Below are positions 2,655 through 15,664 of a DNA stretch of 64,000 bases, one piece after another. Below the pieces are notes generated by a model, which was not told the DNA's origin, ran no database searches, and saw only the letters and a list, made by a program, of their open reading frames with translations. The stretch's first letter is position 1. Each line of letters begins with the position of its first letter. The stretch is taken from positions 4,576,001 to 4,640,000 of the forward strand of contig CBDFKD010000002.1 in NCBI GenBank assembly GCA_965248695.1, in the 5' to 3' direction. The position numbers were made by a program, and so were the translations under genes. The stretch comes from Acidobacteriota bacterium (GTDB lineage Bacteria > Acidobacteriota > UBA890 > WLXD01).

Positions 2655-3989
2655 CTAGGCGACCACTAGCAGGTCAGCCGAAGTCATCGACAACCGTCGG
2701 CACCTATCGGTCTCGTGCACGAACGTGTCGATGAGCGCCGTGCTACCGGTTGAGTAGCTCTCGAAGTTGAACACCTGGCGTTCGGGGATGATCCACTCGC
2801 TCGTGTCCTCTTCGCCGACGCTGAAGCTCCACCAGCCGACCCAGTCCGGCGGGAAGCTGATGCCGAGCTCGTAGCCGCCGGTGAAGCCGCTGATCTCGCC
2901 GCGCTGACGCATCTGCCAGGCGCCCGTGTCCAGGTAGAACTCGCGCATGACCTTGGTGAGGTCCCTGAGCGGCATGCCGGCGCGCGCGTGAGCGGCGAGT
3001 GTTTCCATCGCCCGCCCGTTCATGTGGTAAAGGTCGGCCAGCTTCTTTGGCGGATCGCCAACGAAGAAGCCGCGGGCGGTGTTGGAGTGGTAGCGGTTCT
3101 TGACGCCGCAGATATCGCAGATGACGTGATCACCCATCTGCACCACGCGCTCCGAGGCGATGCCGTGCAGGAACGACGCGCCGCCCACCTTGATGGACGA
3201 CAGCAACCCCGACATGCCGCCGCCGGCTCGGGTCATGGCGCGTACCATCTCGCCGTAGACCTCGAGCTCGGTGACACCCGGCTGCAAGTGTTCCATGATC
3301 GCCTGCAGGCCGATGTCGCAGATGCGTGCCGCCTCGATTATGACGTCGATCTCGGCGGGTGACTTCAGCAGCTTCACATCGGCCATGATGTCGGAGGCAT
3401 CCTTGAGCGCGCAGCCGCGCGCCTCGAACACCGTCTCGAGCTGTCTCATTCGCGCCGGCACCGGCCGGTAGCTGAAGTACTGCAAACCGACGGTGCCGTT
3501 GAGCCAGCCGGCGGCCTCGAGCTCCATGGCGTGCCCTTCATACGGGCGCCCGCCGCCGCTCTGTGGGCGTCGGACATCGGTGGCTCCCGAGGTGGCCGCC
3601 ATCAGGTCGTCGTGGCTGTCGAAGTGGATGAGCGTGTCATGGTCGACATGCACGGCGCTAATCGAGTTCATCCCCCACGCCTTGGGGCCGTTCTGCTGGA
3701 ACCAGTTGAGCTCGATCCCGTGCAGATAGCACATGTCCTCGGGCATGGTGACGAACAGCATGTCGATGTTGTCCTTCGCCATGCGCTCGCGAACGCGGTT
3801 GAGCCGATCCTGGTATTCGGCCTTCGAGAATGGCGGTGGTGGGTGCTCACCAACGGTCGCTCCCGGAGCGACCTTGCGAGGCGTGAAACCGCCCGTGGTG
3901 GCGTTCGCAGAACCAGCGGCGAGCAGGCCGGCGGCAGAGGCCGCCGAGGTCGCCATGAAGTTGCGTCGATTCAGCTCCGGGTTCTTCAT
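2655..3989 (-). CDS. Tat-exported M24 family hydrolase (ectoine hydrolase EutD/creatinase-like)
   Basis: ATG 3989 preceded by GGAGGAGA; twin-Arg NRRNFM; creatinase-N-like 'FSKAEYQDRL..R'; 'LKSPAEI'; 'GYELGISFPPDW'. Confidence 0.75.
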   Translation of the reverse strand: MKNPELNRRNFMATSAASAAGLLAAGSANATTGGFTPRKVAPGATVGEHPPPPFSKAEYQDRLNRVRERMAKDNIDMLFVTMPEDMCYLHGIELNWFQQNGPKAWGMNSISAVHVDHDTLIHFDSHDDLMAATSGATDVRRPQSGGGRPYEGHAMELEAAGWLNGTVGLQYFSYRPVPARMRQLETVFEARGCALKDASDIMADVKLLKSPAEIDVIIEAARICDIGLQAIMEHLQPGVTELEVYGEMVRAMTRAGGGMSGLLSSIKVGGASFLHGIASERVVQMGDHVICDICGVKNRYHSNTARGFFVGDPPKKLADLYHMNGRAMETLAAHARAGMPLRDLTKVMREFYLDTGAWQMRQRGEISGFTGGYELGISFPPDWVGWWSFSVGEEDTSEWIIPERQVFNFESYSTGSTALIDTFVHETDRCRRLSMTSADLLVVA

Positions 3990-4178
3990 CGGTCTCCTCC
4001 GAGGCGGTGGTCGCCTAGATCGCATCAGCTGTTCGCGGCGGCGACCGCCCCGCGATGGGGGGCGTCGACACGCTTGGCGCGACACTACCTCTGGAACGAC
4101 GGCTTTTCCACCGGAACCGAGGAAGCGTAGAGGGTTATTCGATCCGCAAGCTCGACCCCGGAACCATTTCGCCCGGCG

Positions 4179-4565
4179 CTACTTTTGGCCCAACGCCACC
4201 AGGATCACGTCGCGCACGTCGAATACCAGCGAGATGAAGATCGTCGCCACCAGCAAGAGCACCCAGATGCCGTAGGGGCTTCCGACCTTGAACTCGTCGG
4301 TCCGCACCTCGCTCTTCACCATGTAAACCAGCAAGGGTGTCCACAGAATGAGGTGGGTGATCCCCAACAGGTGCACCGCACCGGTGAGCGCGAAGATCGC
4401 CAGGCCGAGCGGCATCGTGAGCACCATCACCGCGAGCACCCAGCGCGCCGCCTTATGTGTCCAGACGAACAGCAGCGACACTAGGAAGCAGATGGTCATC
4501 CAGTTGAGCCAGGCCTGGACCGCCGGGGAGAGCATCTCCATCTGGGCCTGCATGTCAGCGAGCAT
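4179..4565 (-). CDS. Hypothetical inner-membrane protein (about 4 TM helices)
   Basis: 128-aa hydrophobic ORF with plausible codon usage. Confidence 0.65.
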   Translation of the reverse strand: MLADMQAQMEMLSPAVQAWLNWMTICFLVSLLFVWTHKAARWVLAVMVLTMPLGLAIFALTGAVHLLGITHLILWTPLLVYMVKSEVRTDEFKVGSPYGIWVLLLVATIFISLVFDVRDVILVALGQK

Positions 4566-4774
4566 TCAGGGAACCTCCGGTGTCGGGGCCGGCTCGAAGC
4601 GAACGCCGGGAGCCCAGGCGGATCTGCTACGCCGGTCGGCTACGCAACGGACTCTACCGCAGCACGCTTGGACGGACACGGTACAAGTTGGATGATGGGA
4701 AGCGATCTGGACCCCCCGCACGTCGGTAGCCCGGACATGCCGGTCTACGGTTTGCCAGAAAGAGGGAACGCTAC

Positions 4775-5605
<831 letters not shown>

Positions 5606-5618
5606 GAGGGTTTCGATC

Positions 5619-6155
5619 ATGACGCGAGTGGTCCGCGTTCCGCTAAGACGACTGGTACCCGAGAACGTCGAGGGCTTCGGAGAGGTCATCCGCGACCTTG
5701 ACGATGTGTGCCCGGTCGTTCGCGAAGGCGAGATGGTGTGCGATCGCATGGAGATGGTGCGTCGTGACGACGAGATCTACTCCACCAACCTCGCGGTCGG
5801 CGACGAAGGTGTGGTGGCCACGGTTGTCGATGGTGCGGCGCGCGTCAGCCACGTCAACTACCACGGCGACGCCACGCAGGCGTTCATCGCTGCCGATCGC
5901 CGGCCGACCATCTTCTTGCTCGCCAAGCCGACCGACGACCTGCAGCCGGAGGACTTCGTGGCGTTCTACTCCGACGGCTCGGTCGGCATGAGCATGCTTC
6001 CCGACGTCTGGCACACCTCGCCGTTGCCGGTGGAAGGCAGCCAGTCGTACGAGAACACGCAGGGTAACGGCTATCACCACGCCACCGTCGAGCACGAGTT
6101 TCTCGACCAGGGCGTGGTGCTGGCGGTGCCGCTTCAGGCACCGGAAGACCAGTAG
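5619..6155 (+). CDS. Ureidoglycolate lyase-like cupin protein
   Basis: 'L.PEN..GFG.VI', 'NYH.D.TQAF', 'PEDFVAF', 'PDVWH.SP' resemble the AllA family. Confidence 0.6.
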   Translation: MTRVVRVPLRRLVPENVEGFGEVIRDLDDVCPVVREGEMVCDRMEMVRRDDEIYSTNLAVGDEGVVATVVDGAARVSHVNYHGDATQAFIAADRRPTIFLLAKPTDDLQPEDFVAFYSDGSVGMSMLPDVWHTSPLPVEGSQSYENTQGNGYHHATVEHEFLDQGVVLAVPLQAPEDQ

Positions 6156-6167
6156 GCCGACATCGCG

Positions 6168-8423
6168 GTGCAGCTTGGAGCGCCGTGTCTCCGGGGACCG
6201 GCCGCTGCTTGGCTCGGGCTGGCGCTTTTGGCGCTACCGACGGGCGAGGTCGTGGGCTTGCCCGTCGATCCCCGGTCTCCGGAAGCCCGTCAGGCGGCTG
6301 GTTCGCCGCCCGGTTCGCCAGCCGTTGACGCCGGAGAGACCATCCTCCACGCGCTACGGGTTACGGAGGCACCTGAGGTCGACGGCGTGCTGGACGAGAA
6401 GATCTGGGACGATGCCCCACCGTTCGATGCGTTCATCCAGCAAGTTCCCGATACCGGGTCAGCGGTCAGCGAGCGCACCGTTGTGCGAATCCTCTACACC
6501 GACGCCAACCTGTACTTCGGTGTGTGGGTGTTCCAGCGCGACCCCGACACCGTTCTCGCCAACGAGCTGCGTTACGACCAGCCACAGATGCACCGGCAGG
6601 ACGACACCATCTCCATCATCCTCGACACCTTCCACGATCATCGCAACGGCTACGAGTTCATGTTCAATCCGCTCGGGACGCGCAACGATTGGGCCTGCAC
6701 CGACGAGGGGCGCCACTGGAACCAGTCCTGGGATCCGGTGTGGGACGTCGTCACCACGATCACCCAAGAGGGTTGGTTTGCCGAGGTCGAGATCCCGTTC
6801 AAGAGCCTGCGGTTCCGGGGTGACGGCGGCCGCTGGGGTATCAACATTCGGCGCGCGATCCTGCACCGCAACGAGTGGGTTCATGCGACGGCCATCTCTC
6901 CTGCGTACACGCATCCATCGCAGGGTATCGGCAAGCTCTCGTCGGCCGCCGACCTGGATGGCCTGGAGGGAATCGGCGTCGGTCACAACATCGAGATCAA
7001 GCCCTACGTGTCGATCGACTCGAGTGCGCGAGTGGATGGGCTGGAGCGCCCGCAATCGGGTGTCGAGCCAGGGGTCGATCTCAAATACGGGTTCACCCCG
7101 AGCCTGAACCTCGACCTGACATACAACACCGACTTTTCCCAGGTCGAGGTTGACGAACAGCAGATCAACCTGACGCGCTTCGGGTTGTTCTTTCCGGAGA
7201 AGCGCACCTTCTTTCAGGAGGGGCGTGGGATCTTCGACTTTGGTGTGAATCGTGGGAACTACCGCGTGCTGCCGTTCTTCAGTCGCCGGATCGGCCTGGA
7301 GGATGGCACGCCGGTGCCGATCGGCGGCGGCGGTCGCGTTACCGGCAAGCTAGGTGACTACAGCATCGGTGTTCTCGGGCTGCGGACCGCGGCGGAGGGA
7401 GCACACGTGCGCAACGATTTCTCCGCTGTGCGCGTCAAGCGGGACGTTCTGGGTCGATCCAGTGTCGGCATGCTGTTCACCGATCGTCGTTCCGCCGGTG
7501 ACGACGCTGCCAACCAGGTTTTCGGGCTCGACGCCAACGTGGCGTTCGGAGCTCGCAACAAGGTGGACCTGTTCTGGGTGCAGAGCAGCGATGAGCGGGG
7601 CGGCGACAGCTCCACCGCGTATAGGGCGCACTTGCTGCTGGAGAACGACCTGCTGGGCCTCGAGACCGACTGGATGCGGGTCGGAGATGCGTTCGACCCC
7701 GGCGTCGGCTTCGTTCAACGGCGCGGCATGAACCGGCGCTATGTCAAGGCGCAGGTGAGCCCGCGCCCGGAGCGATTCGGCATTCGCAGGGTCTATCTGC
7801 GCACGGAACTGGACTACGTAGAGGACCTGCACGGCAGCCTGGAGACGCGGATCTGGACCGAGAGCCTGACCATCCAGTCCGAGCATGATGACAACCTGAC
7901 GTTCAGCTGGCAGAGCTCGGACGAGGTGATTCGTGAGCCGTTTCTTGTCGCCGGGGTTCTGCCGGTGGCACCGGGGAGCTACGGGTTCGACGACTGGCAG
8001 CTGCGCATGGGGACCTCACCGATCCGCAGCCTGTTCGCCACCGTGCGACTCCGCGGCGGAGGCTTCTTCGATGGCACGCGCTCCGATCTCGCTGCCAACG
8101 CCTTCCTGAGAGCCAGTCGGCACTTGCTGGTCGACGCCGGCTACTCCAACAGCAGGATTCGCTTGCCCTCCGGGCGGCTCGACGCGACTCTCCTGCGCTT
8201 TCGCGGCACCTACGCCTTTAACCCGCGCATCTGGGTGGCAACGTTGGTGCAGTGGAATAACGTCAGTCGCGAGCTCGGCGTCAACGCACGGCTGCGCTAC
8301 ACCTACCGACCGGGTAGCGATCTCTATGTGGTGATCAATGAGCGGGCCATCAGCCCGGAGAGCATGTGGCTGTTGCGCGAGCGCAGCCTGATCGTCAAGT
8401 GGACCTACTTGCTGCGCCTCTAG
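6168..8423 (+). CDS. CBM9-like + DUF5916 outer-membrane protein
   Basis: 'PEVDGVLDE..W', 'LDTFHD.RNGY.F..NPLG', 'GW.AE.EIPFKSLRF', 'NTDFSQVEVD.QQINLTRF.LFFPEKR.FF'. Confidence 0.85.
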   Translation: MQLGAPCLRGPAAAWLGLALLALPTGEVVGLPVDPRSPEARQAAGSPPGSPAVDAGETILHALRVTEAPEVDGVLDEKIWDDAPPFDAFIQQVPDTGSAVSERTVVRILYTDANLYFGVWVFQRDPDTVLANELRYDQPQMHRQDDTISIILDTFHDHRNGYEFMFNPLGTRNDWACTDEGRHWNQSWDPVWDVVTTITQEGWFAEVEIPFKSLRFRGDGGRWGINIRRAILHRNEWVHATAISPAYTHPSQGIGKLSSAADLDGLEGIGVGHNIEIKPYVSIDSSARVDGLERPQSGVEPGVDLKYGFTPSLNLDLTYNTDFSQVEVDEQQINLTRFGLFFPEKRTFFQEGRGIFDFGVNRGNYRVLPFFSRRIGLEDGTPVPIGGGGRVTGKLGDYSIGVLGLRTAAEGAHVRNDFSAVRVKRDVLGRSSVGMLFTDRRSAGDDAANQVFGLDANVAFGARNKVDLFWVQSSDERGGDSSTAYRAHLLLENDLLGLETDWMRVGDAFDPGVGFVQRRGMNRRYVKAQVSPRPERFGIRRVYLRTELDYVEDLHGSLETRIWTESLTIQSEHDDNLTFSWQSSDEVIREPFLVAGVLPVAPGSYGFDDWQLRMGTSPIRSLFATVRLRGGGFFDGTRSDLAANAFLRASRHLLVDAGYSNSRIRLPSGRLDATLLRFRGTYAFNPRIWVATLVQWNNVSRELGVNARLRYTYRPGSDLYVVINERAISPESMWLLRERSLIVKWTYLLRL

Positions 8424-8451
8424 AGAGGCGGCAGCGGCGATTCACTCCGGA

Positions 8452-8570
8452 TCAGGTCCCGTCGTCCGTGAGGCAGAGGTTGCGTAGTCGCCTCGGCAGC
8501 TCGACGAACACGAGCGGATTGGAGCTGTCGCTGTTGGCCATGATCACGAAGCCGTAGCCGTCCTCTCGCG
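8452..8570 (-). pseudogene. C-terminal remnant of a probable beta-lactamase-family serine hydrolase
   Basis: Minus-strand frame reads EDGYGFVIMANSDSSNPLVFVELPRRLRNLCLTDDGT-stop with no matching 5' part; 'GYGFVIMANSD' resembles the C-terminal strand of this family. Confidence 0.4.
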
Positions 8571-8598
8571 CGCCTGCGGCCGAGTCTGCCGGGAAGGG

Positions 8599-10023
8599 TT
8601 ATCGCAGCCCGACCTGGCCCTTGACCGAATCCAGCAGCTTGCCGGCGTCGTAGCCGATGCCGTCCTTGAAGACGGTGACGACGTTGCGGATCACGCTGGC
8701 CGCAGTGGTGAGATCGCCTTCGAGAACGGCCAGATCTGCCAGCATACCGACCGCGATCGTGCCGCGCTCGTGGTCGACGCCGAGCACTTTGGCGCCGTTG
8801 GCGGACATGATGCGTACTGCCTCTTCGGGTCGAAATCCGGATTCGACGAACAGCTCATAGTTCCGATGATCGCCGAATCCCGGAAGCGCACCTCCCGCAG
8901 GATCGACGCCGCTGGCGAGTATCCCGCCGGCCTCGACGAAAGCGCGGTTGAACGCCATCGCGTTGGCCAGCAGCCCCTTCATGAAGGCGCGTTCCTGTGC
9001 CGTCTCGCGGGTGCGCTCACGAAGCTCCTGGTACTCCTGACGCAGGCGTGGAGTCATCATCTCCAGGGCTCGCGGATGCACGTCGGGGCGATCCGGGATC
9101 CTCCACTCGAACACCGACAGCGTCGAAGTCAGCGGCACGCCGTGTGCGACGATGTGGCGAATAGATTCCTGCACCTGTTCGCTGTCGATGTCGAGGTCGG
9201 CGAGTGTGGCGGTCATCTGCGGCGGGCAGACGTCGACCTCCTTGCCGGGGACGAAGTCGCTCATCGTGATGAACGAGTGCTCGAGGTTGTCGATGCCCAA
9301 CTCGACGGCCTCGCCGTGGGTCACCGAACACAGATGCGCTGTTACCTTGATGCCGCGCTTGTGGGCCTCGTCGATGGCCGCGCCCAGCGTTTCCCGGCTG
9401 ATGCTGGTGTAGGCCTTCATCCACTCGATGCCTTCCTCGTCCCAGTAGGCCACTAGCCTGCGAGCCTCCTCCGGCGTCGCGGTCTTGGGCTCGACGGTGT
9501 CGAGTGGGTTCGTGCTGTTGTCCAGGTACGGGCCGGTGACGTGCATGTGTGGCCCGGGGACATCGCCGCGATCGATCTGGGCTTTGACGTTGAGGTCGCT
9601 GTACGCCAGCACGGTGCCGGTGGTGCGGATCGTGGTGACGCCGCTGCCGAGATACAGGCGCGGCGCCGAGAACACCATTTGGCTATAGATCGCCCCCGGG
9701 GAGGTGTAGAACGTGTGGTTGTGCAGCCCGATGAGACCTGGAATGACGGTATGGCCGCGCAGCTCCAGCACCTCGGCACCGGAGGGGATCGGTACCTCCC
9801 CTGTGGCTCCCACCGCCGCGATACGACCGTTCCGGATTAGCACCGTCTGATCACTGGCTGGCGGCGCGCCGGTACCGTCGATCAGTTGCACGTCGGTCAA
9901 CGCCACGACCCCCGCGTCGACGCTGACGAACTCCATCGTTTCCGGGGCGAGGGCGGGCGGCGCTTGCGCCGCCGCGACGCTGGCGAGCGTTGCCATGATT
10001 AAGGCGTAGGTAGGGGCTCGCAT
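8599..10023 (-). CDS. Secreted amidohydrolase family protein
   Basis: Signal peptide; 'IPGLIGLHNH', 'GVTTIR', 'LEH', 'GVD', 'GTIAVGMLADL'. Confidence 0.9.
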   Translation of the reverse strand: MRAPTYALIMATLASVAAAQAPPALAPETMEFVSVDAGVVALTDVQLIDGTGAPPASDQTVLIRNGRIAAVGATGEVPIPSGAEVLELRGHTVIPGLIGLHNHTFYTSPGAIYSQMVFSAPRLYLGSGVTTIRTTGTVLAYSDLNVKAQIDRGDVPGPHMHVTGPYLDNSTNPLDTVEPKTATPEEARRLVAYWDEEGIEWMKAYTSISRETLGAAIDEAHKRGIKVTAHLCSVTHGEAVELGIDNLEHSFITMSDFVPGKEVDVCPPQMTATLADLDIDSEQVQESIRHIVAHGVPLTSTLSVFEWRIPDRPDVHPRALEMMTPRLRQEYQELRERTRETAQERAFMKGLLANAMAFNRAFVEAGGILASGVDPAGGALPGFGDHRNYELFVESGFRPEEAVRIMSANGAKVLGVDHERGTIAVGMLADLAVLEGDLTTAASVIRNVVTVFKDGIGYDAGKLLDSVKGQVGLR

Positions 10024-10027
10024 CGGT

Positions 10028-11404
10028 CTACTCCTGCACGCGTAGTGTCAGCGCCACGTCCTGGCGCCGATAGAGGCAAATCCCGTTGACGTCCTCGCAT
10101 ACGTAGTAGAGGGCGTATCCCGGCAGCTTCAGGTCGCCCTCCGGGGCGTTGTCCGGAACGCGAATCTCGAACTCGACCGTGCGCGGCTCCAGGCTCACGG
10201 TCTGCGGTGGGTTGGCGACCGTGAGGACGCGGTGATCGACCTGCCACTCGTCGGGCGGCTCGATCCAGAAAACGAGATCATCGACCTCGTTGTTCCAGTG
10301 CGCCTTGATCGCATCGTTCGGCAGGAACGTCACGTGAGCGCGGGTGCTGGCGCCCGGTGCGACGGTGCCCGGCACCAGAGTGCTCTCGGCGACCACGTAG
10401 GTGCCGTCGTCGCGCAAGATACGCTCGTCGATCACCGGCGGGACGGTGGTGTCGGCGACAAAGGCGGGCGTTGGCCGGGCGAACTCTGCGCCGCCAGGCT
10501 CCACGACGAGCTCCGCTGGCGTTTCGCCACGGGCAGTGATCTCGGCGCGCGCCGTCGGGACCCAGTCGTAGAAGGGGTACGGCTTGTCCAGCCGCGGTCC
10601 GTACTGCTGAATGCGCCGTCGCCAGATGTAGTTGTTGGGGTCGACCGTCAGCGCCGCTTCCCAGTAGTGCACGGCGCGCTGGAAGTCGCCTGGCCGGGCG
10701 GACGGGGAGTCGTAGCGGCGCCGGACTGCCACGCCGGCGCGGAACAGGCCGTAGCCGTGCCCCGGATTCGCGCCGGCGGCATCGGCGAATGCATCGACGA
10801 TGGTGTCGATCTCGTCGTTGCCGCCCCAGCGGTACAGATCGTGAGCCCGCTGCCGAGCCGCATCCACCGCCACCGGCTGGCTCAGCGCGGGAGCTCTGGG
10901 TGCCTCGAACGCCACGTCGACGAAGGTGCGGCGCAGCTCATCCGGGTTGTCCAGCGGCGGGTGTATCTGCCGGACGATGCCGTGCTCGTCGATGGCCAAG
11001 GTCAACGGCACGACGTCTATCTCCAGCAGGTCGAGAGAATCCACCAGCACCGGCCAGTCCATCCGCTTCCATTGCATGAACAGGCGCGCTCGATCCGGGT
11101 GCTGCTCCTGCACGATGCCGAGCATCTGGACGTCGCCGGCGGCTCGCCAGGTTGCGGTCGCTTCGTGCCACCCGGGCACGTGCACGCGGCAGCCTGCTCA
11201 CCACGAGGCGAACACGTGCAAGATCAGCTTGTGGCCGCGAAAATCAGCGACGCTGCGACGAGTGCCCTCCAGGTCGGGGAGCGAGATGGTCGGGAACGGG
11301 CGGCCGATCTCCGGCGCGGGCGCGCTCTGCGGCACAGGCCCGGGGGCTGGAATCACCGCCATCAGCATCACCAGAGCTCCGAGGCTCGCCGCTCGTGTGG
11401 TCAT
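10028..11404 (-). CDS. Putative selenoprotein: exported TlpA/ResA-like redoxin (UxxC) fused to a TPR-like helical region and a DsbD-N-like C-terminal domain
   Basis: ORFs 11198-11575 and 10028-11185 are in the same frame, separated by TGA at 11198-11200 and four sense codons, reading HVFASW-U-AGC-RVHVPGW. Redoxin context 'FPTISLPDLEG..RSVADFRG', 'VPLTLAIDEHGIVR'. ATG 11404 starts a signal peptide. Confidence 0.8.
11146..11197 (-). promoter_or_regulatory. Candidate bacterial SECIS element
   Basis: Apical hairpin CGTGCC-CGGGT-GGCACG (11180-11164) begins 17 nt after the UGA; extra pairing CAGG/CCTG, TGC/GCA and CGC/GCG could form a lower stem. Confidence 0.6.
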
Positions 11405-11610
11405 GTTCTGTCTCCGGATCTCGCCAACGTGCGCACTCGCCCCGCCAGGGAAGCTCACGTTCGTCTGCCGGCGCAGTCTATCCTGGTGAGGCCGTAGTTC
11501 ACCAAGAGCCCGACGACGCAATCGACTCCCTCGCTGCGCCTTGATCTCACCGGGAGTCCGATCCGCAGCATGCAACGATCATCTCTTGCAGTCCGCTAGC
11601 CTCCTCACCG

Positions 11611-12976
11611 GTGCGTGTGACAATGAGCTTTGGATGGTCTGGAGGAGTTTGGCGGCGGTGGAGCCTGGCTGCTGCTCTGGTGACGGTGTGGGTTACGGCG
11701 CTGCCTGGGGCGGCTGCGCAGCTGTCGGTCGATGTCGCGACGGAGATCTGGCGAGGCGATGTGGATCAACGGCTGGCGACTGCCGATCGTCTGGCCGCGT
11801 CGGGGTCCTTCGACGAGCTCTACGCGGCACTCGAAGCCGGTCCGCGCTACGACGGCACCTCGCCTACAGGACGGCTGCTGCACCGGCACGAGATCGGCGG
11901 TGTGGGGCATTCGTACCTGGTCCAGGTGCCCGGCGACTATGATCCGGTGCGGCGCTACCCGGTGCGGGTGTATCTGCACGGTGGGGTCGCTCGCGGCGAA
12001 GTTCCCGACAACGGCGGCTGGTGGCGCGATCCGAATCGTCTGGCGAGCTCCGACCACATCGCCGTGTTCCCGGCGTCGTGGGGTGCCTCCAAGTGGTGGC
12101 AGGAGAGCCAGCTGCTCAACCTGACGGCGATCCTCGCCAGCTTGAAGATGACCTACAACGTCGATGAGAACCGAGTGCACGTTGTCGGGGTTTCGGACGG
12201 CGGTACCGGGGCGTGGTACATGGCGTTCCGCGACCCCACGCCGTGGGCCAGTTTCGTGCCGATGATCGGCCACCCGGCGGTGCTCGCCAGCCCGCGGGTC
12301 GACGTCGAGGGACAGATGCACGTGGTCAACCTCCGCAGTCGCCCGTTCCTGGTGTTCAACGGTGAGGTCGATCGGTTGTATCCGGCGCGCAGCGTCCGGC
12401 CGTACATCGAGCTATTCCGCGACGCCGGCGTGCAGGTGGAGTTCATCGAGATCGCGGGCGAGGGGCACACGGTGCGATGGTGGCCCGAGCGCGCCGACCG
12501 CATCGACGGATTCCTCACGTCGACGCGGCGCGATCCGCTACCCAGCCGCCTCAGCTGGGAGACCGAGGACGTCACGCGCTTCAATCGCTCCCACTGGATG
12601 GTGATCGATGCACTGGGGCCGGCTGACGGCGACGCCGCCTTGCCGGACATCGAGCGCCGTCTGGCGGATGCTTCCAATCTGCTGGTCGGATTTCCGCGGG
12701 CGGCGTCGAGCGGCCCGTGCCGAAGCGACGGTCGACGGGAACGATATACAGATCCGCTCGCGCGGAGTGCGTCGTATGCGATTGTTGTTGTCGCCGCGTC
12801 AGTTCGACCTGTCCCGCGCCGTACGCGTACGGGTCAACGGCATCGAGCGCCACGCCGGCGTGGTTGAGCGGAGCAAACAGACGTTGTTGCGCTGGGCGGC
12901 GCGAGACCTCGATCGGTCGATGCTCTTCGGCGCCGAGCTGGAAATCAGAATCCCGCCGGCGCGCGGGTCTCTGTAG
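11611..12976 (+). CDS. Secreted alpha/beta-hydrolase (esterase/peptidase-like), split by a +1 frameshift near 12715
   Basis: 'VYLHGG', nucleophile 'GVSDGG', 'GEVD', 'GEGH'. The C-terminus (RAEATVDGNDI...FGAELEI) continues in ORF 12608-12976 after an extra C in CGGCCCG. Confidence 0.7.
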
Positions 12977-13088
12977 CGGGAGCGGAGCCGGGGTGGCCGT
13001 TGCTGCTTCCTCGCGATCTGGCTAAAGTTCACCCGACACGCCGACCATTGTCCAGCGTGAGTTCCGGTCCTGATCTGGTAGGTGAGAC

Positions 13089-14561
13089 ATGAACAACCGA
13101 GCGGTGCACAACACTGGTTTCGTCAGCCCGGTCGCACTGGCGGCGATCATCACGCTCGCCGTATCACCGGCGTCCGCACAGTGGGCTCAAGCGCCGCCAC
13201 GGGAGGTCGTGATCACCGGCGGCTGGTTGTTTGACGGCATTCGCGACACGCGTGTCCGTAACACCGGCATCGTTATCCGCGACGGCAAGTTTATCGAGGT
13301 CGGGGCCGACCTGCGGGGTCGCTACTTTCCTGCGGCTCAGATGGTCGAGCTCGACGACGGCGCCACGATCTTGCCGGGCATGATCGATCTTCACGCGCAC
13401 CACAACATGAACATGGTCGGGGTAGGGCGGGCCGAGGAGGTCACGTACAACTCGATGATCTTCCTGGCTAACGGAGTTACCGCCACCTGGTCGGCGGGAG
13501 AGTTCTTCCCCGAGCGTGTTATCGAGGCGCGCGATCGCATCGATCGCGGCGAGGCGATCGGGGCGCGGGTGTTCGCCTCCGGCCCCTACTTCGGCGCTTT
13601 CCGATGTGAGTACCAGATCCAGACCGCTGAGGACGACTGTATCGGGTGGCCGAACGACATCACCGAGACCGAGATTCGTGCCGAGGTCGACTACTGGGCG
13701 CAGCAGGGAGTCACCAGCATCAAGATCAAGCAGTCGACGCCGGAGGAGATGCGCATTCTCATCGACCAGGCGCATCGGCGGGGCATGACCACGACGAGTC
13801 ACCTCGGCAACTACGCCGGTAGCTATGACGTCGAGCCCGCGGATGCCATCGCTATGGGGCTCGATCGCGTCGAGCACTGGATCACGCGAGGTAGCGAGCC
13901 GGAGCCCGGCGAGCTCGAACGCCTGATCGGGCTGTTCTTGGAGGAACAGGTTTACTTCGATGCCAACCTGCAGATGTTCGGTGGCAACATGGCCAACCAC
14001 CCGCAGCTCGATATGGTGTGGGTGGACGAGTACAAGTACTTCACCCCGTACGCTCAGGCGCGTATCCGAGAGCGCCTGGCTGCCGGGGCGGAGCCGGCGG
14101 ATGTGTATGTGGAATCGGCGAGCTTCCGCCGCCGTATGGCGGAGGTCGGGGCGCTGTTCGAGTCCGGCGGCGGCGACCTGCTCATCGTCGGCACCGACGA
14201 GCCTACGTCGGGGCCCTGGCTTCCAGGCTTCGCCTACCAGCGCGAGCTGATGGTCATGGCGCACGCCGGATTGCCGGCAGCCGCGGTGCTCAAGGCAGCA
14301 ACGATCAACGGTGCTCGTGCGCTCGGGGTCGTCGACCGTCTGGGTTCGATTGAGCCCGGGAAGTTGGCGGACCTGTATATCACCGAGGGCAATCCGCTGG
14401 AGGACATGTCCGCCGCCCGCAACGTCCGCCTGGTGATCAAGGCCGGGGTGGTCTACGACCCGGAGGCCTTGCTGAAGGCGGCCGAAGGCAAGATCGGACC
14501 TGCCGGGCCGGACGATCACGATGCCTGGGAATTGAAGGTCAAGCCCCTCGTCAGGCAGTAG
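13089..14561 (+). CDS. Secreted amidohydrolase family protein
   Basis: Signal peptide; 'LPGMIDLHAH', 'NGVT', 'VEH', 'GTD', 'GSIEPGKLADL'. Confidence 0.9.
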   Translation: MNNRAVHNTGFVSPVALAAIITLAVSPASAQWAQAPPREVVITGGWLFDGIRDTRVRNTGIVIRDGKFIEVGADLRGRYFPAAQMVELDDGATILPGMIDLHAHHNMNMVGVGRAEEVTYNSMIFLANGVTATWSAGEFFPERVIEARDRIDRGEAIGARVFASGPYFGAFRCEYQIQTAEDDCIGWPNDITETEIRAEVDYWAQQGVTSIKIKQSTPEEMRILIDQAHRRGMTTTSHLGNYAGSYDVEPADAIAMGLDRVEHWITRGSEPEPGELERLIGLFLEEQVYFDANLQMFGGNMANHPQLDMVWVDEYKYFTPYAQARIRERLAAGAEPADVYVESASFRRRMAEVGALFESGGGDLLIVGTDEPTSGPWLPGFAYQRELMVMAHAGLPAAAVLKAATINGARALGVVDRLGSIEPGKLADLYITEGNPLEDMSAARNVRLVIKAGVVYDPEALLKAAEGKIGPAGPDDHDAWELKVKPLVRQ

Positions 14562-14636
14562 GAGCGCCGATGGGCGGCCGTCGTATTGGGTAGCCGGGCT
14601 AACCGGTCCGGGTCCGATGACTACCGGTGGCGCAGC

Positions 14637-15617
14637 TCAGTCGGGCATCTTCACGGCACGGGCGCCGTTTTGCGCCGCCCGGACGCACAGGTACTCGAGT
14701 GCAATGGCTGCCCCGGCGAGCGAGGTGATCTGCGCGTGATCGTACGGCGGTGCAACCTCGACCAAGTCCATGCCGGCGTAGTCGATCTGGGTCAGCTCTC
14801 TGAGGATCGATGACGCCTGGTGGGTCGTCAGACCGCCGGGGACGGGAGTACCCGTGCCAGGAGCGTATGCTGGGTCGAGGCAGTCGATGTCGAACGTCAG
14901 GTACGCCTTGTGATCGCCGACGGTTCGCTGGATCTGCGCTGCGATCTCGGCGGGCGTCGAGCGGTGCACCTCGTCAGCGTAGATGATCCGCATGCCGAAC
15001 GAGCGTTCCCCGGTGTAGTAGGTGCGGATGCCGATCTGCACCGATCGTGCAGGATCGATTACGCCTTCCTCGATGGCGAGTCCGAACATCGTGCCGTGGT
15101 CGATGCGATCGCCGACATTGGGCTCGACGTCGCGATGGGCGTCGAACTGGATGAGCGAGAGGGGCCCATGTACCGCCGCGTAGGCACGCAGCATCGGATA
15201 GGTAACGTAATGATCCCCACCAATCGCCATCGATGAGGCGCCGCCGGCGATGATCCCCGCAATGTGCTGCTCGATCACCTGTGGAGCACTGGCGATGTTC
15301 CCGTAATCGAGCTCGCAATCTCCGTAGTCGACCACCGCCAGCGTGTCGAACGGATCGAACATCCACGGCCACTGGGGTCCCCAGGCGAAGTTCGCTGACG
15401 CCTGCCGCACGCCCTGTGGCCCCAGCCGGGTTCCGGGACGATTGCTCGTCGCCTGGTCGAAGGGAATCCCGGTAACCGCGATATGGGCGGCCGTCAGGTC
15501 GCGCGTGTACTTGCGACGCATGAACGAGAGTGCGCCCGCGTAGGTGGATTCGATGACACTTCCTGTCAGGCCCTCACGTTGGAAGGCGCTATCACCGCTG
15601 ACCTCACTTTCAGACAT
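14637..15617 (-). CDS. speB: Agmatinase (ureohydrolase family)
   Basis: 'GIPFD..TSNRPGTRLGP', 'GGDH', 'FDAHRD', 'DHGT', 'FDIDCLDPAYAPGTGTP'; likely start ATG 15617. Confidence 0.85.
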   Translation of the reverse strand: MSESEVSGDSAFQREGLTGSVIESTYAGALSFMRRKYTRDLTAAHIAVTGIPFDQATSNRPGTRLGPQGVRQASANFAWGPQWPWMFDPFDTLAVVDYGDCELDYGNIASAPQVIEQHIAGIIAGGASSMAIGGDHYVTYPMLRAYAAVHGPLSLIQFDAHRDVEPNVGDRIDHGTMFGLAIEEGVIDPARSVQIGIRTYYTGERSFGMRIIYADEVHRSTPAEIAAQIQRTVGDHKAYLTFDIDCLDPAYAPGTGTPVPGGLTTHQASSILRELTQIDYAGMDLVEVAPPYDHAQITSLAGAAIALEYLCVRAAQNGARAVKMPD

Positions 15618-15651
15618 TCCGATTCCCGTTCCAAGGCCACGAGTAGTTATC

Positions 15652-15664
15652 AATAAACTTTATT
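15652..15664. promoter_or_regulatory. AT-rich palindrome in the divergent promoter region
   Basis: AATAAA-C-TTTATT within an AT-rich island between divergent speB and kinase starts. Confidence 0.35.

Follow-up and report, generated by a model that had tools for sequence, protein, structure and literature searches.

Organization of the reading frame and of the encoded protein

Analysis of a 64,000-nucleotide stretch of genomic DNA from an Acidobacteriota bacterium (contig CBDFKD010000002.1, positions 4,576,001 to 4,640,000; the whole stretch is referred to here as the window) revealed a gene on the minus strand whose reading frame contains an in-frame TGA. Direct reading of the sequence gave TGG TGA GCA GGC TGC at 11203-11189 (-), with the in-frame TGA at 11200-11198. 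When this TGA is read as selenocysteine (Sec, U), a single coding sequence of 458 codons plus TAG is obtained (10028..11404, minus strand), which runs from ATG 11404 to TAG 10030-10028 and has full-length orthologs of 50-91% identity. The sole U is residue 69, in the context H-V-F-A-S-W-U-A-G-C-R. Downstream of U69, 389 codons were counted, in agreement with the approximately 390 reported in a preliminary description of the locus, whose coordinates and counts were all correct when the sequence was reread. The TGC codon of Cys72 (11189..11191) is invariant in 22 of 22 orthologs; by analogy with CxxC chemistry, Cys72 is the presumed resolving partner of Sec69. A Shine-Dalgarno-like GGAGA (11411..11415, minus strand) stands 6 nt before the ATG (11404-11402) and may function as such.

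The preliminary description had also proposed that gene callers split this gene in two, and this is what was found. Translation with table 11 yields one open reading frame (ORF) at 11198..11575 and a second at 10028..11185, which has a GTG start and encodes 385 amino acids (aa). The GTG (11183..11185, minus strand) is the codon of Val74, 12 nt past the TGA, and serves gene callers as the false start of the 385-aa product. Homologs in the databases open with MHVPGWHEAT, i.e., from the GTG just past the TGA, and the best 120 of them are all of the truncated form, covering just 78-85% of the query. The database entries examined are truncated "hypothetical" or "TPR repeat" (tetratricopeptide repeat) proteins that lack the signal sequence and half of the catalytic domain.

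The 458-aa protein consists of an N-terminal signal-like segment and three domains, all encoded on the minus strand. Residues 1-26 (11327..11404) comprise Arg4 and the hydrophobic stretch LGALVMLMAVI, with a predicted local distance difference test score (pLDDT) below 50. Every ortholog has a comparable hydrophobic stretch ahead of the redoxin domain and in the same frame, and the N terminus is read as a predicted export signal. The earlier claim that the protein is exported is retained to this extent, the basic and hydrophobic N-terminal stretch being its sole basis.

A TlpA/ResA-like redoxin domain was assigned to aa 33-148 (10961..11308) by Pfam, Foldseek, and alignments with solved chains. 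It matches the Pfam families AhpC-TSA (PF00578; 40.9 bits versus a gathering cut-off of 26, E 2.3e-10) and Redoxin (PF08534; 34.6 bits versus a cut-off of 26.6). Foldseek retrieved ResA, DsbE, and TlpA-like chains with E values of ~5e-9 and TM(target) values of 0.74-0.80. By sequence, 26 solved chains match the redoxin domain. In these alignments, W68-U69-A70-G71-C72 corresponds to WCPPC, WCPYC, and WCSIC of 3or5, 3hdc, and 4evm, with U69 at the position of the first Cys, which agrees with the earlier placement of the UGA at the first Cys of the WCxxC motif of TlpA/ResA redoxins. The full-length AlphaFold2 (AF2) model, generated from an alignment of 22 sequences (pLDDT 83.1; predicted TM score [pTM] 0.81), has a thioredoxin fold at residues 35-165, modeled as one domain across the TGA with pLDDT mostly above 85.

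The middle domain (aa 182-291; 10532..10861) consists of helices in the AF2 model and gives a weak TPR signal: the families TPR_2, TPR_16, TPR_1, and TPR_14 matched with E values of 0.01-0.05, under their cut-offs, and many of the truncated homologs have precomputed TPR families. Conservation within the family is strongest in the motif Y-I-W-R-R-R-I-Q-Q-Y-G-P-R-L-D-K-P-Y-P-F-Y-D-W-V at aa 259-282 (10559..10630), where most columns are invariant or nearly invariant among the 22 orthologs. The C-terminal domain (aa 322-458; 10031..10441) is an immunoglobulin (Ig)-like beta-sandwich that reached a pLDDT of 93.9 when modeled alone. It had no Pfam match at E<=10 and only generic beta-sandwich matches by structure, the best among those listed being 9fyo_A (Z 11.1; root mean square deviation [rmsd] 3.1 over 109 residues). 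Within this domain, Cys436-x6-Cys443 (10076..10099; V-C-E-D-V-N-G-I-C) flanks the last beta-hairpin and is invariant in 22/22 orthologs. This Cys pair is either redox-active or structural.

Conservation of the TGA codon, the adjacent hairpin, and the Sec machinery

A six-frame search, performed on 41 relatives and then on 401 genomes of the phylum, detected orthologs in 29 genomes (the tally includes one unpublished genome, G071), and all 27 matches covering residue 69 contain the in-frame TGA. Examination of 33 loci assigned TGA to the same codon in 27/27 ortholog loci, i.e., 25 loci found by motif pattern together with L046 and L050, in which the site reads W-A-S-W-U-A-G-C; three further loci comprise the C-terminal part only, and three are unrelated weak TlpA matches. 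A scan of contigs representing one genome per species returned 518 related stretches. Among the best 80 of these, the site is covered in 78 loci, all with TGA, and uncovered in L094, where a contig end leaves only sequence past the site, and in L113, which is without the N-terminal part. According to the record titles, the carriers in this species-genome scan are Acidobacteriota of several classes and Gemmatimonadota. Single metagenome-assembled genomes labeled Poribacteria, Neomarinimicrobiota, Planctomycetota, and Enterobacteriaceae also carry the gene, although such labels may be unreliable. A metagenome scan seeded with relatives that lack Sec revealed TGA in 77/80 loci and Ser in 3. The UGA within W-U-A-G-C, as first described for this one locus, is thus a property of the family.

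Contigs of four public runs, together with dozens of independent assemblies, give TGA at this codon and not TGC or TGT. In the contigs of these runs (three studies), no other letter was present at 11198-11200 at a threshold of 10%, in a comparison of contigs rather than raw reads, which rare variants would escape. Conservation at the protein level extends over both flanks of the TGA in orthologs from 91% down to ~50% identity. Upstream of the TGA, residues F55, G57, L62, F65, A66, S67, and W68 are invariant among the 22 orthologs, and nucleotide substitutions in this part are at third codon positions. The in-frame TGA is conserved far beyond chance.

Two side observations concern the same region. 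In the contigs of four metagenome runs, the summed contig depth rises from ~8 to ~500 over a ~60-nt segment that contains the TGA and the hairpin that follows it (window 11150-11210), and contigs break there, because a near-identical segment is common to contigs of many other organisms. Damaged copies of the gene were also encountered. L031 (G002) has further in-frame TGA(s) and is truncated, L032 (G012) and L055 (G004:C14) are frameshifted near residue 420, and L147 has its N-terminal part in a different frame from the remainder of the gene. These copies are either pseudogenes or assembly errors; genome G004 holds two copies, one intact and one broken.

The UGA is followed by a hairpin of the selenocysteine insertion sequence (SECIS) type, CGUGCC-CGGGU-GGCACG (11180-11164, minus strand), which lies inside codons 75-81 (H-V-P-G-W-H-E). 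The rules for bacterial SECIS elements (bSECIS), as given in the accessible text of PMC13188914, specify a loop of 3-9 nt, a stem of 4-16 bp, a G within the first two loop positions, a UGA-to-loop distance of 16-37 nt, and a minimum free energy of <= -7.5 kcal/mol. The hairpin satisfies these rules with a loop of 5 nt, a stem of 6 bp, a G at loop position 2 followed by another G, a distance of 23 nt, and an energy of -8.5 kcal/mol. The G-rich-loop hairpin that the preliminary description had placed 17 nt after the UGA was located at exactly that distance, and its synonymous sites are frozen.

Codon entropy was determined in an alignment of the 22 intact orthologs (50-91% identity; the damaged copies L031, L032, and L055 were excluded). 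V76 is encoded by GTG in 22/22 orthologs (entropy 0 bits), compared to 1.14-1.42 bits in other invariant Val columns. P77 is encoded by CCC in 20/22 (0.44 bits), compared to 0.79-1.75 bits in other invariant Pro columns. H75 (CAC) and G71 (GGC) each use a single codon in 22/22 (0 bits each); the remaining invariant Val, Pro, and Gly columns, taken together, have entropies of 0.79-1.93 bits. Among the 78 species loci, GTG is present in 78/78 and CCC in 75/78, whereas the Ala that directly follows the TGA is encoded by four different codons and the Arg by six. The five inner stem pairs are intact in 78/78 species loci, all four one-sided changes leading to G-U, and the outer pair is kept in 65/78. 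In the metagenome loci, four inner pairs are intact in 77/77 and the fifth pair in 70/77. A G is present at the first or second loop position in 78/78 species loci and 76/77 metagenome loci, the loops of the latter being GGUCU (36), CGGGU (18), GGCCU (7), CGUGU (7), AGUCU (5), and four others found once each (n=77). The case for the hairpin is its evolutionary conservation and not its energy; folding energy was set aside as evidence because shuffles of this GC-rich DNA fold equally well.

Searching the same genome for the Sec machinery revealed a tRNA-Sec (70.2 bits, anticodon TCA), selA (521.8 bits), selD (319.1 bits), and selB (330.4 bits, or 354.3 bits with its C-terminal piece). All these matches exceed curated cut-offs, so that the complete set of selA, selB, selC, and selD, for which a search had been suggested, was found. 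A selA match at E<=1e-60 is present in 26/29 carrier genomes and in 300/401 genomes of the phylum sample. As a discriminating marker, selA was discarded, since it is scarcely more frequent in carriers than in the phylum sample as a whole and is only weakly informative. The three selA-negative carriers, G023 (69% complete), G101 (99%), and G317 (96%), all have a tRNA-Sec with 68-76 bits (76.2 bits in G101 and 71.5 bits in G317). In two loci, L058 (G012:C5) and L069 (G004:C14), a gene for seryl-tRNA synthetase adjoins the selenoprotein gene (5541-6830 and 8437-9996, respectively), with DNA polymerase I beyond. Seryl-tRNA synthetase is the enzyme that first charges tRNA-Sec; its adjacency in these two related loci is probably coincidental synteny.

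Proposed mechanism, relatives without Sec, and rival explanations

The locus very probably contains one gene for a 458-residue extracytoplasmic selenoprotein with a TlpA/ResA-type redoxin domain carrying Sec69, likely a thiol-disulfide oxidoreductase. Translation would start at ATG 11404, and the ribosome would insert Sec at UGA 11200-11198, as we infer from the sequence. The hairpin at 11180-11164 would recruit SelB carrying Sec-tRNA(Sec); recruitment of SelB by a hairpin 3' of the UGA is the standard bacterial mechanism. Sec69 would replace the nucleophilic first Cys of W-C-x-x-C and cycle with Cys72 between the selenol/thiol and the selenenylsulfide forms. The TPR-like domain probably provides a surface for binding of a partner or substrate. 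Most likely, the protein would serve in the envelope as a thiol-disulfide (selenol) oxidoreductase with exported proteins as its substrates. Such an enzyme may be kept reduced via a CcdA/DsbD-type pathway, and one CcdA-type gene, encoded elsewhere in the genome (62 bits), could supply the electrons. What is said here of export, of the direction of electron flow, of any function of the C-terminal Cys pair, and of the substrate is put forward as a proposal only.

Relatives without Sec were collected in an exhaustive HMMER search with aa 30-170. Among the best 150 matches, 125 start past the site and are therefore truncated annotations, and 25 cover it. Two of the latter are generic tandem TlpA proteins; the other 23 share the architecture of the family at 37-51% identity. 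The Sec position of these 23 proteins is occupied by Ser (18), Cys (2), His (1), Trp (1), or Asn (1), and S-x-x-C is present in 10. The Cys forms are P0246 (FASWCPEC, the only CxxC form) and P0243. The suggestion that homologs would have Cys in place of the UGA consequently holds for the solved TlpA/ResA chains and for P0246 and P0243 but not for the commonest relatives without Sec, which carry Ser. Ser forms seem abundant in protein databases as an artifact of annotation; at the DNA level, Sec forms dominate (77/80). The Trp form, P0162 (126 aa, from the representative library), reads F-S-S-W-W-V-G-C-R-K-H-V-R-V-W-H; its Trp may stem from a TGG codon or from TGA translated under a TGA=Trp table.

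The C-terminal domain could be aligned in 12 of the 23 relatives. Both Cys residues are kept in P0246 and P0127, one in P0129 and P0243, and none in the other eight, and C-x6-C is lost in 8/10 Ser-form relatives that have a C-terminal domain. This co-loss, in a small sample of related sequences, hints that the Sec/Cys site and the C-terminal Cys pair belong together; the same pattern would result if a diverged clade had lost a structural disulfide. The three Ser forms among the 80 metagenome loci have no H-V-P-G/V-W peptide at the site, which would fit a partly RNA-driven conservation, three sequences being too few to weigh.

Several results speak against the proposed selenoprotein oxidoreductase. 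The energy of the hairpin is unexceptional, as 19/200 shuffles fold as well as -8.5 kcal/mol and the 86-nt hairpin context has a z of -0.47 versus shuffles, and an Rfam scan of window 10900-11500 gave no match at E<=10. The stem is almost invariant, and no compensatory covariation was detected within the family. One compensatory change, G-C to C-G, was found in comparison with a paralog in the same genome (see below), and this double change probably represents one event. Selection acting on the H-V-P-G-W-H peptide could account for some of the nucleotide conservation. The predominance of Ser rather than Cys among the non-Sec residues is unusual for a selenoprotein family. Neither of the near-complete genomes G101 and G317 has a selA match at E<=0.001 above 36 bits. 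Finally, no RNA run is listed for the locus among public runs, and Pfam analysis of 98 flanking ORFs of 14 loci revealed no recurrent neighbor.

If the TGA were a real stop, the locus would encode an exported peptide of 68 residues and, from GTG 11185, a TPR protein of 385 residues, or it would be a decaying pseudogene. This is the reading of the gene callers, it is matched by the truncation of the best 120 database homologs, and some copies (L031, L032, L055, and L147) are clearly damaged. It is nevertheless highly improbable, since the stop would cut the thioredoxin fold amid the active-site motif, whereas AF2 folds this region as one domain; the TGA and both its flanks are kept over the whole identity range in 27/27, 78/78, and 77/80 loci; and a pseudogene would not retain third-position-only substitutions upstream of the stop. 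Read-through of the UGA by other means than Sec, i.e., by near-cognate Trp, Cys, or Arg or under a reassigned code, could be suspected from the W of P0162 and from the two near-complete carriers in which selA was not found. Yet no other stop is as frequent in the window as TGA, which terminates 29 of the 51 stop-free stretches of >=300 codons, and it also terminates this same gene in 8/22 intact orthologs; hence, the genetic code has not been reassigned. The complete Sec machinery in the genome, the tRNA-Sec of the selA-negative carriers, the conserved hairpin with its SelB-type G(G/U) loop at the right distance, and the location of the site at a redox-active Cys position likewise make such read-through scarcely credible.

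Two further explanations accept Sec and differ in function; both are lesser rivals to the oxidoreductase role. A peroxidase-like role, in the style of peroxiredoxins (Prx) or glutathione peroxidases (GPx) and with the Ser-x-x-Cys relatives as Cys-peroxidatic versions, is rather unlikely. It agrees with AhpC-TSA as the best Pfam family (2.3e-10), with a weak NCBIfam match to the thiol peroxidase Bcp (E 0.001), with the presence of the Prx/Bcp structures 3drn, 5enu, and 5xbr among the Foldseek matches, and with the S-x-x-C of 10/23 non-Sec relatives, which has the shape of the Prx T/S-x-x-C motif. In addition, "Prx-like thiol:disulfide oxidoreductase, UxxC" is already a class in the accessible selenoprotein list of PMC13188914. 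The Prx signature given there, P-x-x-x-T/S-x-x-C(U), is, however, absent from the family: the residue four positions before U69 is Phe65, replaced by Trp in 19/78 loci and never by Pro. The Bcp match reaches only 19 bits versus a cut-off of 140, and ResA, TlpA, DsbE, and Etrx, each of which has W-C-x-x-C, head the structure and sequence matches. Moreover, V132, P133, and T135 of a V-P-x-T loop are invariant among the 22 orthologs, and this loop presumably lies where thioredoxin-like oxidoreductases keep their cis-proline. The other explanation, that U-x-x-C and C-x6-C bind a metal or metalloid (Cu, Hg, As, or Se) in the envelope and take no part in disulfide exchange, has a still smaller likelihood. 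Several of the prokaryotic selenoproteins listed in the accessible text of PMC13188914 are metal-related, MerR and MerT genes are found in the vicinity of locus L062, and radical-SAM/methyltransferase genes in that of L061 and L062. Such neighbors occur, however, in just 1-2/14 loci, Pfam and NCBIfam scans of the protein matched no metal-binding family, and the fold and motif are of the thiol-disulfide oxidoreductase type.

A bolder proposal, advanced tentatively and with considerable doubt, concerns the family as a whole. It would be a large, undescribed family of three-domain envelope selenoproteins in which Sec-x-x-Cys and the protein's own C-x6-C form an intramolecular selenol/thiol relay, with no dedicated partner encoded in the neighborhood. 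In effect, Cys could not stand in for Sec. Lineages losing Sec would change to Ser, would mostly also lose the second Cys pair, and would become redox-dead binding proteins.

Known families, gene neighborhood, and significance

Comparison with NCBIfam models revealed NF041054 (ResA-like WAxxUGC) as the best match to the 458-aa protein, yet the score is 56.3 bits versus a cut-off of 300, and the match spans only profile positions 84-200 of 354. The motif of NF041054 is W-A-x-x-U-G-C, compared to (F/W)-A-S-W-U-x-G-C here, which is one residue longer, and the 458-aa protein is without the N-terminal extra domain of ~140 residues. No NCBIfam model reaches its cut-off on the 458-aa protein, the equivalog scores all being far below. 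The 458-aa protein is outside NF041054.

A second TlpA-like selenoprotein gene, encoding 390 aa, was found in the same genome (G000:C2 ~3011693-3012865 [-], corresponding to L070:696-1865 [-]). This paralog has the motif T-W-A-S-W-U-G-C and scores 280.5 bits with NF041054, just under 300, so that the curated model would miss it. Its hairpin, CCUGCC-AGGUU-GGCAGG, lies 14 nt past the UGA and encodes L-P-G-W. The paralog shares 26% identity with the 458-aa protein over the redoxin and helical domains (aa 38-270) and lacks the Ig-like C-terminal domain with C-x6-C found in the latter. Further TlpA-like genes, with W-A-S-W-U-G-G-C and distinct 5-bp hairpins (loops AGUUA/AGUUG) right after the UGA, are present in L076 (G021:C694) and L078 (G031:C135) and probably represent additional selenoprotein subfamilies.

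Selenoproteins with UxxC on the PF00578, PF08534, and cd02966 folds are already listed in the accessible text of PMC13188914, PMC9312934, and PMC2398784, and the UxxC classes of the reviews PMC9312934 and PMC13188914 have the same Pfam families and the same UxxC motif as the 458-aa protein. By this domain-plus-motif scheme, the 458-aa protein belongs to a known class, a comparison made by description only. As far as their text is accessible, the two reviews define these classes by domain and motif only, with the fusion to TPR-like and Ig-like domains unmentioned, and contain 0 occurrences of Acidobacteriota or Gemmatimonadota. Acidobacteriota, Gemmatimonadota, TlpA, and redoxin are also unmentioned in the main text of the BSepDB paper. 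The three-domain architecture is undescribed in the titles and abstracts searched (WAxxUGC; selenoprotein with TlpA and tetratricopeptide; Acidobacteriota selenoproteins). The family may already sit unnoticed in published selenoprotein lists. The gene encodes a selenoprotein of the known UxxC TlpA/Prx-like class with a new domain architecture.

The protein shares with ResA, TlpA, CcmG (DsbE), and Etrx the fold, the W-C-x-x-C register, and, judged by its sequence, a predicted exported or anchored location. It differs from them in having Sec for Cys, in being three times longer, and in its two extra domains, and cytochrome-maturation, Sco, and CcdA genes, which were looked for as neighbors, adjoin it in 0/14 loci. 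In DsbD, the thioredoxin-like gamma domain passes electrons to an Ig-like alpha domain bearing a Cys pair, and DipZ of Mycobacterium combines a thioredoxin-like with a beta-sandwich domain. The combination of a thioredoxin-like and an Ig-like or beta-sandwich domain in one chain is the idea that the 458-aa protein has in common with DsbD and DipZ. The C-terminal domains of DipZ align over 417-422 columns, but with a TM(query) of just 0.25 and an rmsd of ~18 Å, and the membrane domain of DsbD is absent from the 458-aa protein. Identification of the C-terminal domain as a DsbD-alpha domain found no support among the 50 best fold matches or in Pfam at E<=10, although families outside this listing may still match; it is kept as an analogy and a lead.

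Downstream of the selenoprotein gene, an amidohydrolase gene (8599..10023, minus strand; Pfam Amidohydro_1, 96.1 bits) starts with ATG 10023 after a gap of 4 nt (ACCG). The two genes had been described as cotranscribed. The shared strand and the 4-nt gap are the whole basis for this, and the adjacency is kept in just 3/25 ortholog loci, all from one genus, and because of this confinement it is uninformative on function. A scan of 8400-11800 for promoters and terminators yielded nothing that resembles a promoter and a single terminator-like site, which is on the plus strand and is no more than shuffles give. The 98 flanking ORFs of the 14 loci, which were chosen greedily by length in high-GC DNA and are in part spurious, include no CcdA/DsbD, Sco, or cytochrome-maturation genes. 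Because no redox partner is encoded nearby, the reductase role and the substrate are proposed from family resemblance.

Other genes of the window were also noted. The region 2655-15653 is rich in hydrolases of nitrogen compounds, with a peptidase M24 (2655-4085, minus strand), a ureidoglycolate-lyase-like gene (5619-6155, plus strand), a second amidohydrolase (13089-14561, plus strand), and an arginase-family gene (14637-15653, minus strand). Two ORFs on opposite strands, 11605-12321 (-) and 11611-12867 (+), overlap each other and belong to no Pfam family.

The gene does not represent a new kind of system, as redoxin-fold selenoproteins with UxxC are a well-known class. A UGA-aware model of the family would correct thousands of truncated database records. 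It would likewise increase the number of selenoproteins counted for Acidobacteriota and Gemmatimonadota, two phyla of soil and sediment that the accessible selenoprotein literature barely touches on. The family supplies a near-invariant minimal SECIS for non-model phyla and, according to the predicted export, puts a Sec-redoxin in the cell envelope. The pattern of Sec/Ser rather than Sec/Cys replacement bears on why Sec is retained.

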